17,112 nt of DNA from a virus (Duplodnaviria > Heunggongvirae > Uroviricota > Caudoviricetes): IMG/VR virus record IMGVR_UViG_2541047699_000018; one strand, 5' to 3'. Position 1 is the first letter of the stretch. Each line of letters begins with the position of its first letter. Made by a program: the position numbers and the translations under genes. The notes beneath the pieces were generated by a model. The model had not been told where the DNA came from, searched no databases, and saw only the letters and a program-made list of their open reading frames with translations. Below, piece after piece: positions 10,718 to 11,687 of this stretch.

Positions 10718-10795
10718 CAACAAATATGCCCTGAACGTTTATTGCGGTTTTATCGCCGGGGATTGTTACAACCTTAATCCACAGGAGGCTTTATT

Positions 10796-10909
10796 GTGAC
10801 TTTTATAAAGAATATGGCATCACACAAGACCGCCTGCCTTATTGCACAATACGGTGAAAATTACATGCATATTGCCTGCTTATTTCTGCGTAAAGCATAC
10901 GGGAGATAA
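10796..10909 (+). CDS. Small ORF (37 aa), possible leader peptide or small protein
   Basis: Perfect SD aggagg (10783-10788) 7 nt before GTG 10796; stop 2 nt before the next ATG. Peptide VTFIKNMASHKTACLIAQYGENYMHIACLFLRKAYGR. Confidence 0.25.
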   Translation: MTFIKNMASHKTACLIAQYGENYMHIACLFLRKAYGR

Positions 10910-10911
10910 TA

Positions 10912-11100
10912 ATGCATCAGAAAACAGCAGAACACGAACAAACCAGAGTATTGCTGACCATCAAAAACGGGAAAGTAATATTCATTCGCCATGTTCATGA
11001 CGATGAACTTGTAGGAACTCTTTCAACATTCCTGTTTATTGCAGAAAGGGCAGGATATGACGTTATTGCACCAGCAGATGAAGATGAAGATGAGGAATAA
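10912..11100 (+). CDS. Small protein with acidic C-terminal tail (DEDEDEE)
   Basis: 62-aa ORF with SD gggag before ATG 10912; ends 5 bp before the next gene. Confidence 0.5.
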   Translation: MHQKTAEHEQTRVLLTIKNGKVIFIRHVHDDELVGTLSTFLFIAERAGYDVIAPADEDEDEE

Positions 11101-11105
11101 ATATC

Positions 11106-11687
11106 ATGCAATACGATGAATTCCAGGCTGAAGCAACAGCCAATGGTATACGAACTGGCAGTATGACGATTGATTATCACGACGCCATACGTCGTCTGGA
11201 TGCCGGAGAATTCGATACTCCTAATGTGCGAGGTTTACGTATCCTTCAGTGTCTGGCGCAAGCCGACGAAGCAGGATTACTGGGTAAACTTCCGGTTGAG
11301 ATGAAGGTTGCTCAGTGGCGATGGTTGTATGTGACGACATTCATCAACGAAGAAGAAGACAAGAACGGCACAATTGATATCCTGAATGAACACGGAACAA
11401 CTGAACACGCCGTGGTATATAACGGGATGTATGGGTTTATGACGATATATCCCGGCCCCATTCGATTTGCCTTACAACAGTATATTGAATGGAATTTAAT
11501 TCAAAAATACGGCGAAGCTGAAGGAATGGGAAGAGCGCTGTTTCTTTATCAGAAAATGCTCACTACTTCCCCTGATAAAGGTTTCATTCTTTCAGATATG
11601 GGTCGAGAAGGGCTTGAAATCCTTCTGGATGAAATTATTAACGAAATGAATACTCATGGCATGCAATCCGAAACAGATATTAAGTAA
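11106..11687 (+). CDS. Hypothetical protein
   Basis: 193-aa ORF with SD gaggaa before ATG 11106; no recognised motif. Confidence 0.6.
   Translation: MQYDEFQAEATANGIRTGSMTIDYHDAIRRLDAGEFDTPNVRGLRILQCLAQADEAGLLGKLPVEMKVAQWRWLYVTTFINEEEDKNGTIDILNEHGTTEHAVVYNGMYGFMTIYPGPIRFALQQYIEWNLIQKYGEAEGMGRALFLYQKMLTTSPDKGFILSDMGREGLEILLDEIINEMNTHGMQSETDIK

Follow-up and report, generated by a model that had tools for sequence, protein, structure and literature searches.

We analyzed three closely packed open reading frames (ORFs), encoding proteins of 37, 62 and 193 amino acids (aa), in a DNA stretch of 17,112 nucleotides (nt) from a virus of the class Caudoviricetes (IMG/VR virus record IMGVR_UViG_2541047699_000018). 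The whole stretch is referred to here as the window. As judged from sequence comparison, all three ORFs are real, conserved protein-coding genes; in public records their products are named only "hypothetical." A sequence-only reading of the window had described them as a tightly coupled three-ORF module. Our analysis indicates instead that the trio is probably the leading part of a mosaic accessory-gene array and not a self-contained three-part system. The features of the locus are the following.

10718-10795, plus strand: non-coding spacer of 78 nt after the 121-aa gene (which ends at 10717), with a conserved block, ATCGCCGGGGATT..., and AGGAGG at 10783-10788
10796-10909, plus strand: 37-aa ORF, GTG start, TAA stop at 10907-10909
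10910-10912, no strand: mosaic junction, at which homology to prophages with an alternative cassette ends
10912-11100, plus strand: 62-aa ORF, ATG start, product ending ...PADEDEDEE
11075-11097, plus strand: repeat of GAT/GAA codons encoding the DEDEDEE tail, seen in the sequence
11106-11687, plus strand: 193-aa ORF, ATG start
11664-11687, plus strand: second mosaic junction, the last approximately 8 codons of the 193-aa ORF; megablast matches to Stx phages stop at query position 965, which is window position 11664

Much of the layout described earlier was found in the sequence. A perfect Shine-Dalgarno (SD) sequence, AGGAGG at 10783-10788, lies 7 nt ahead of the GTG codon at 10796. The ATG codon of the 62-aa gene at 10912 comes 2 nt past the TAA codon of the 37-aa gene, its product has the DEDEDEE tail, and the ATG codon of the 193-aa gene at 11106 comes 5 nt past the stop codon of the 62-aa gene. 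The SD sequences ascribed to the two larger genes are SD-like and plausible: GGGAG at 10901-10905, inside the 37-aa ORF (6-nt spacer), and GAGGA at 11092-11096 (9-nt spacer). The "190-bp intergenic region" placed ahead of the 37-aa ORF had to be corrected, as the upstream gene ends at 10717 and the gap is 78 nt; a gap of about 194 nt results only when, as in RefSeq, the 37-aa ORF is left out. We likewise recognized no motif in any of the three proteins. Pfam and NCBIfam gave no match to a catalytic or toxin family for the 37-, 62- and 193-aa proteins, sequence and profile searches of solved structures gave no match for the three, and a literature search by topic, accession and PHROG or Pfam identifier turned up no publication about these families.

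The homology of the locus to related prophages breaks between the first and the second gene. Four matches (H70 to H73) cover query bases 1 to 213, that is, the leader and the 37-aa ORF, with 96 to 97% identity and stop at window position 10912. Beyond this position, these prophages carry an alternative cassette composed of a 119-aa gene, a 71-aa paralogue of the 62-aa gene (45% identity), a 72-aa ParE-like gene and a 130-aa gene. This 62-like paralogue matches the same protein family as the 62-aa protein, PHROG 340 (E 2e-25).

We took a census of such arrays by scanning about 300 loci with hidden Markov models of the families. The loci came from independent searches seeded with the 193 family, with 62-like proteins of three genera and with the ParE-like protein, and they yielded 175 distinct arrays. 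The 37-aa gene was first in 161 of these, and the next gene was the 119-aa gene in 94 arrays and a 62-like gene in 67. The three genes therefore do not behave as a unit: other cassettes are headed by the 37-aa gene as well, and the homology stops exactly where the 62-aa gene begins. The commonest long array had the order 37, 119, 62-like, ParE-like, 130, (SPFH) and 193-like, and the window and phage phiP27 represent a shortened array of the type 37-62-193. The 62-like and 193-like families were found together in 111 of the 175 arrays, the former without the latter in 52 and the latter without the former in 12. The two genes directly abut in 66 distinct arrays, and in long arrays they are parted by the ParE-like gene, the 130-aa gene and sometimes an SPFH gene. 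Elsewhere, genes for Rha or ORF6N proteins or for a primase-helicase come after the 193-like gene. PADLOC-DB contained no match for the 37-, 62- and 193-aa proteins and no meaningful match for the 119-aa, ParE-like, 130-aa, SPFH and DUF5406 proteins.

In the short form, the 62- and 193-aa genes have diverged in step. Pairwise comparison of 63 distinct short arrays gave an identity correlation of r = 0.92 between the 62- and 193-aa proteins and of r = 0.67 between the 37- and 62-aa proteins. By this measure, the short 37-62-193 form is inherited as a block and has been for a long time. The value of 0.92 points to a long-standing linkage of the 62- and 193-aa genes, yet co-inheritance is what is expected of adjacent genes.

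The array lies in the early-left region of a prophage. Across the query, the stretch containing it was 100% identical to Escherichia phage PhiR49_2, an induced phage of ECOR13, and matched prophages at yecE in many Escherichia coli chromosomes at 99.9% identity; in Stx1- and Stx2-converting yecE phages it is present at about 92% identity. By these matches, the window is a yecE-integrated lambdoid prophage that is common in E. coli. On the plus strand, the order is immunity region, xis and int. Three further features define the setting of the trio.

9642-9716, plus strand: OL-type operator cluster with exact sites, half-sites and a pL-like promoter site, TTGCCA-17-TACCAT (9660-9688); context only
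9720-10223, plus strand: gene for a 167-aa helix-turn-helix (HTH) protein, the first after pL; PHROG 4739, DicA/CII-like
11698-11946, plus strand: 82-aa winged-helix (MarR-like) gene; PHROG 1687 (E 8e-24), Pfam MarR_2 and HTH_24 below cut-offs

A LexA-type cI gene ends at 9616. Exact copies of CAAAGTATC are present at 8866 (minus strand), 8903 (plus) and 9642 (plus), and related GTATCA half-sites are found at 9669-9686 and 9701-9715. Operator-like clusters thus flank cI, one at 8866-8940, between cro and cI, and one at 9642-9716; we read the first as OR and the second as OL/pL. A 243-aa ORF that opens at 8885 overlaps with the first of these clusters. Public annotations start cI at 8927 or 8960, and one of these is therefore probably the true start. 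No terminator-like site was found on the plus strand between 9500 and 12018, and the pL-like promoter at 9660-9688 most likely drives the operon with the 37-, 62- and 193-aa genes. The predicted operon comprises, in order, the 167-aa HTH gene, the 121-aa gene, the 37-, 62- and 193-aa ORFs, the 82-aa winged-helix gene, a DUF4752 gene and an Ea22-like gene. On balance, we place the trio as genes 3 to 5 of the pL (early-left) operon. No homologue of the N antiterminator was recognized in the scan of leftward-arm ORFs, which extended from cI to the Ea22-like gene.

The 82-aa gene opens 10 nt past the stop codon of the 193-aa gene. RefSeq leaves it out at the near-identical (99.9%) locus of strain AR_0372, where the subsequent annotated genes overlap one another; Stx phage records list it as a regulator of the MarR family. 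Short gaps and overlaps thus continue along the operon, and close packing is a property of the operon as a whole and not of the trio. The proposal that the spacing implies co-translation of the three genes as a unit therefore survives in part. The close packing stands and fits co-transcribed accessory genes; the idea of a trio acting as a unit does not, given the other cassettes headed by the 37-aa gene and the homology break at 10912.

The 37-aa protein is basic (isoelectric point [pI] 9.5) and had no Pfam or PHROG match. Its relatives form a family of basic peptides of 33 to 38 aa in phages of Escherichia, Salmonella (Fels-1), Cronobacter and Klebsiella, with the consensus M-T-F-I-K-D-x-A-A-Y-K-T-A-x-L-x-A-x-x-G-...-I-A-x-L-Y-L-R-K-A-Y-G-R. 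The C-terminal L(F/Y)LRKAYGR is near-invariant, and 8 residues are invariant among 13 diverse members. All related loci examined have the ORF intact. A GTG start is confined to the window lineage; the start codon is ATG in each of the five other loci that were fetched and aligned to the window. Against diverged orthologues, the proportion of nonsynonymous changes (pN) was about 0.15 and that of synonymous changes (pS) 0.71 to 0.84, and the other two frames gave a ratio of about 1 or above; by this comparison, the ORF is under strong purifying selection. A variant of the peptide that differs by one residue, R37K, is present in at least 1,000 contigs. As a separate observation, a 67-aa ORF in another locus (L019:4867-5070) ends in ...LANLFLRAAYGVK, similar to the conserved C terminus of the 37-aa family, which suggests that longer relatives of the protein exist. 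A resemblance to TPR repeats, which arose solely from inspection of the consensus, was rejected: none of the 13 diverse members matched TPR models at E values up to 10, though above about 0.1 most matches are removed by the speed filters of HMMER.

The position of the 37-aa ORF raises an alternative, namely, that it is chiefly a cis-acting leader that loads ribosomes on, or regulates, the downstream cassette, with a functionless peptide. Its stop codon lies within a few nucleotides of the next start codon, whichever gene comes next; the SD sequence of the succeeding gene, GGGAG or GGGAA, is embedded in its last codons; and the ORF sits exactly at the joint of cassette exchange. Nevertheless, we consider this explanation unlikely. 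Purifying selection acts on the amino acid sequence over the full length of the ORF while synonymous change is saturated, and the peptide family, with its invariant residues, is conserved across genera. Moreover, the spacer and leader region contained no terminator, had no Rfam match to a leader or any other family, and showed no alternative or otherwise unusual RNA structure (fold z-score, 0.37). A regulatory leader peptide or attenuator was rejected for these same reasons.

The 62-aa protein belongs over its full length to PHROG 340 (E 1.1e-22; residues 2 to 61 on profile positions 17 to 76 of 85), a family of unknown function that includes L07 of phiP27. The exact sequence of the window was found in 168 contigs and close variants of 60 to 62 aa in at least 1,000. 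The conserved part of the family is a core of about 45 residues, predicted as a beta-hairpin (residues 12 to 28) and one helix (37 to 46) with a predicted local distance difference test score (pLDDT) of 81; the tail is disordered. Searches of solved structures gave no sequence or profile match, and the model is too small for a fold search. The core had weak local matches to the C-terminal part of the anti-repressor families PHROG 4792 (E 1.3e-6) and PHROG 2379 (E 8e-4). An identity as a phage anti-repressor was rejected: the matches were local and C-terminal only, and across the approximately 300 loci the domain occurred in no longer ORF, except for one ParE-like fusion.

That fusion mirrors the usual association of the 62-like family. 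Of the 95 arrays with a ParE-like gene, 91 have a 62-like gene immediately before it, as do all 73 arrays seeded on the ParE-like protein, and the two genes overlap (by 29 nt in one locus, L003). The 72-aa ParE-like protein is a member of PF24732 (63.7 bits versus a cut-off of 24.4). The predicted charges of the two proteins are opposite, with a pI of 4.3 to 4.7 for the 62-like proteins and of 11.3 for the ParE-like protein. The single case of a fusion is a 153-aa ORF (L265:517-978) in which a diverged 62-like domain is joined in frame to the ParE-like protein; it may be either natural or the product of a frameshift or assembly error. Taken together, the gene order, overlap and charges make a neutralizer role of the 62-like family towards ParE-like proteins a reasonable lead. 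The suggestion that the small acidic protein binds and neutralizes a partner is thus plausible, but the candidate partner is a ParE-like protein and not the 193-aa protein. The window itself contains no ParE-like gene, so that the position upstream of and overlapping a ParE-like gene, expected of a ParE antitoxin, is seen in the relatives and not in the window. We found no homology of the 62-like proteins to ParD/RHH, PaaA2, Phd/YefM or other antitoxin families.

One could suppose that the 62-aa protein of the window is an active orphan antitoxin that neutralizes ParE-like proteins of co-resident prophages or superinfecting phages. The association just described, the opposite charges and the fusion ORF agree with this view, as does the predicted layout, a folded core and then a disordered tail at the C terminus, which is that of many antitoxins. 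Several observations make it a doubtful explanation, one that is not likely to hold. Among 5,426 complete E. coli genomes, 203 had the 62-193 module, 110 had the ParE-like cassette and 4 had both, compared to 4.1 expected; a role of the window protein in cross-immunity was rejected for want of any co-enrichment. In addition, the protein resembles no known antitoxin family or structure, its tail is unlike that of the ParE-linked copies, a 62-like gene is missing from 4 of the arrays with a ParE-like gene, and the 72-aa ParE-like protein is only a putative toxin, by its family membership.

The 193-aa protein matches PHROG 1515 over its full length (E 3e-90; residues 1 to 192 on profile positions 12 to 202 of 203), a family of unknown function that includes L06 of phiP27. 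The exact protein is present in at least 1,000 contigs. It is acidic (pI 4.6), and the predicted structure is a confident alpha/beta model. An exhaustive profile search recovered about 100 representatives of the family, nearly all of them single-domain proteins of 190 to 210 aa. Conserved positions include W71-R72-W73, N87-G88, Y105, R120 and E128, and they form no recognized motif. Family and structure searches revealed no toxin family and no known fold relative, and the Pfam, NCBIfam and PADLOC scans returned only a sub-threshold match to DUF1980_C. In the window, the C terminus reads GMQSETDIK in place of the family-conserved GMPxxPxxH, and by the end of the Stx phage matches a recombination joint lies inside the 3' end of the gene, at about 11664. 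The 119-aa protein of the long arrays (PHROG 1737; L003:3214-3573) weakly resembles the 193-aa family over the C-terminal half of the latter (hmmsearch E of about 5e-5; hhalign E 0.007, probability 5.6%), and the two may be distant paralogues.

The distribution of the 193-like genes is wider than that of the arrays. When one genome per species was considered, 11 of 13 loci had a 193-like gene without a 62-like gene within 6 kb, and 7 of the 13 genes were located in satellite-like, non-lambdoid elements (L020 to L026, at about 5950-9700). There, an Ash-family gene and several 57- to 75-aa helical ORFs with 4-nt overlaps are followed by the 193-like gene and a gene of about 118 aa. A primase-helicase gene of about 930 aa (Zn_Ribbon_Prim, Toprim_3 and DUF927) then follows in 5 of the 7 loci, with the Pfam domains confirmed for L023; L025 has no 118-aa gene, and no primase ORF was seen in L026. 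The hosts of the 193-like genes that stand alone beside Ash and primase-helicase genes are Pantoea, Erwinia, Buttiauxella and Rahnella. Its distribution marks the 193-aa gene as a free-standing accessory gene carried by mobile elements.

These distributions bear on the proposal that the 62- and 193-aa proteins make up a two-protein system of their own, either a toxin or other effector with its neutralizer or an obligate complex. The genes meet at a 5-nt gap in the window and at a 4-nt overlap in diverged copies, their 66 adjacencies include 62-aa proteins of 53 to 100% identity, with the correlated divergence noted above, and the two families share most arrays. However, each also occurs alone, in 52 and 12 arrays, respectively, and the 193-like gene does so in most species-level loci; in long arrays, other genes separate them; and the tight spacing is operon-wide. 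Because the distributions are independent, both proteins are acidic (pI 4.7 and 4.6) and the 193-aa protein resembles neither a toxin nor any known fold, the pair is unsupported, and we regard such a system as quite improbable. Two checks had been proposed for it. Co-occurrence across prophages is common but not obligate, and the fold and family searches with the 193-aa protein revealed no recognizable fold relative and no toxin resemblance. A type II toxin-antitoxin system, with the 62-aa protein as antitoxin and the 193-aa protein as toxin, was rejected on these two grounds.

The acidic tail of the 62-aa protein had been taken as a functional signature, and this does not hold up. Near-identical homologues differ in tail length, from DEDEE to DEDEEEDEDEDEE. 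Orthologues that still abut a 193-like gene end in PAKEQTL, and the ParE-linked paralogues end in ...SNTHS. The 62-aa protein has a pI of 4.7 and a net charge of -8, and its core (residues 1 to 54) has a pI of 6.4. Since the tail is absent in relatives and the core is not strongly acidic at this pI, the tail is no signature of the family and the DNA-mimic reading is weak. That the protein is an Ocr- or ArdA-like DNA mimic with anti-restriction activity, as its net charge, poly-acidic tail and early-expression position might suggest, is highly improbable, as the tail is a disordered stretch of 7 residues that most family members lack, including those beside 193-like genes, and the protein matches no solved structure in sequence or fold and hence no solved DNA mimic.

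Three observations concern other parts of the window. A TTG-initiated ORF of 188 codons on the minus strand (11592-12158) is antisense to the winged-helix and DUF4752 genes and is probably spurious, since the plus-strand genes have family support. Another minus-strand ORF (10111-10371) showed no similarity to the minus-strand gene annotated in L003. Finally, Rfam searches of the minus strand at 7566-7764 detected a C4 antisense RNA (7566-7653, 75 bits) and an isrK Hfq-binding RNA (7675-7751, 62 bits), both above the gathering score, and a sub-threshold c4-a1b1 target match (7712-7764). The matches lie in the 5' part of a Rha-family gene (6960-7808, minus strand). The arrangement resembles antisense control of the P1/P7 immI kind, applied in a lambdoid prophage to a gene of anti-repressor type.

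According to our model, loss of cI repression would lead to transcription of the genes from pL as one polycistronic mRNA with closely coupled translation. The 37-aa gene would be the constant head of the array, its 3' end providing the ribosome-binding site for the following cassette and its position marking the recombination joint at which cassettes are swapped. The 62-aa family would consist of small, acidic binding proteins, and the ParE-fold protein encoded just downstream is probably their usual target. With this partner missing, the 62-aa protein of the window would be an orphan, and its acidic tail would consequently be unconstrained and prone to slippage. The 193-aa protein would be an independent acidic protein that moves among lambdoid phages and satellite-like elements; rather than acting as an enzyme or toxin, it most likely binds a protein of the host or of a rival element during early lytic growth, in host takeover or counter-defense. 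With some reserve, we favor this overall explanation of a pL-operon accessory array of independent small binding proteins.

A number of points weigh against this explanation. Dependence on pL is suggested by consensus matches and operator repeats, and there is a possible internal promoter at 10511-10540, with a match to 10 of 12 consensus positions, although promoter-like sites in this region are no commoner than in shuffled sequence. The roles in binding and counter-defense are deduced from position, size, charge and mosaicism. In the 4 arrays in which a ParE-like gene lacks a 62-like gene, it always lies beside the 119-aa or the 130-aa gene. The 62- and 193-aa genes stay adjacent at identities of the 62-aa protein between about 53% and 100%, which could reflect function and not simply linkage. 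Furthermore, the sets of loci were shaped by the seeds, with at most 80 loci per search; the qualitative conclusion of the census is robust to this bias in seeds and sampling.

These genes are very common, also in Stx-converting phages and ST131-type strains, yet they are uncharacterized. The unit worth studying is the shuffled early-operon array and not the trio. It offers a conserved 37-aa head gene at the exchange joint, a candidate new partner family for ParE-fold proteins and a protein without fold relatives that is also found in satellite-like elements; any of the three could add to the known cases of conflict between phage and host or between phages, and nothing yet points to a new kind of mechanism. 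In a bolder version, which we hold to be unlikely, PHROG 340 might be an unrecognized family of neutralizers for the short ParE_like proteins (PF24732) of enterobacterial prophages, with the window copy a re-purposed orphan, and/or PHROG 1515 might be a new fold that serves as a counter-defense or hijacking factor common to lambdoid phages and primase-bearing satellite-like elements. The finding as it stands is ordinary in kind: uncharacterized prophage accessory genes with two modest leads, a possible PHROG 340/ParE_like pairing and the presence of the 193-aa family, which has no fold relative, in satellite-like elements.

We compared the array to known systems. Ocr and ArdA are likewise acidic, early-expressed phage proteins, but the acidity of the 62-aa protein is concentrated in the non-conserved 7-residue tail and similarity in sequence or fold is lacking. 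In acr-aca anti-defense operons, small genes are accompanied by an HTH regulator, and in the window small genes of unknown function are followed immediately by the 82-aa winged-helix gene at 11698. In contrast to those operons, we detected no homology to known Acr, Aca or other anti-defense proteins and no evident dedicated promoter, and elsewhere the 193-like gene is succeeded by genes for Rha or ORF6N proteins or a primase-helicase instead.

Prophages also carry ParE-type toxin-antitoxin modules, such as ParD-ParE and the PaaR2-PaaA2-ParE2 module of E. coli O157:H7. As in these modules, the phages related to the window have a small acidic gene upstream of and overlapping a gene for a ParE-fold protein in a lambdoid prophage. 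The window differs from them in having no ParE-like gene, and the 62-like proteins have neither similarity to antitoxins nor a DNA-binding domain. Furthermore, the ParE-like protein is only 72 aa long, is a candidate toxin by sequence and is encoded inside a long phage operon, not in an autonomous module.

The early-left regions of lambda and P22 contain accessory genes such as ral, sieB, kil, cIII and the ea genes, and rexAB lies next to cI. The array shares with the early-left genes its placement between the immunity region and xis/int in the direction of pL, and its genes are likewise small, tightly packed, non-essential in character and highly mosaic. It differs in having no sequence similarity to them, and the first pL gene of the window encodes the 167-aa HTH protein, with no recognizable N; no recombination genes were recognized among the part of the ORFs between pL and xis that was scanned. 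The closest counterparts are the orthologous 37-62-193 arrays of phiP27 (L07 and L06 with an unannotated small upstream ORF), the Stx1 and Stx2 yecE prophages and phage ASU11. In the phiP27-type arrays, L07 and L06 are 53% and 65% identical to the window proteins, overlap by 4 nt where the window has a 5-nt gap, and have no acidic tail and a family-typical 193 C terminus. Annotated as hypothetical only, they occupy the same operon position, after cI, the HTH gene and L08.

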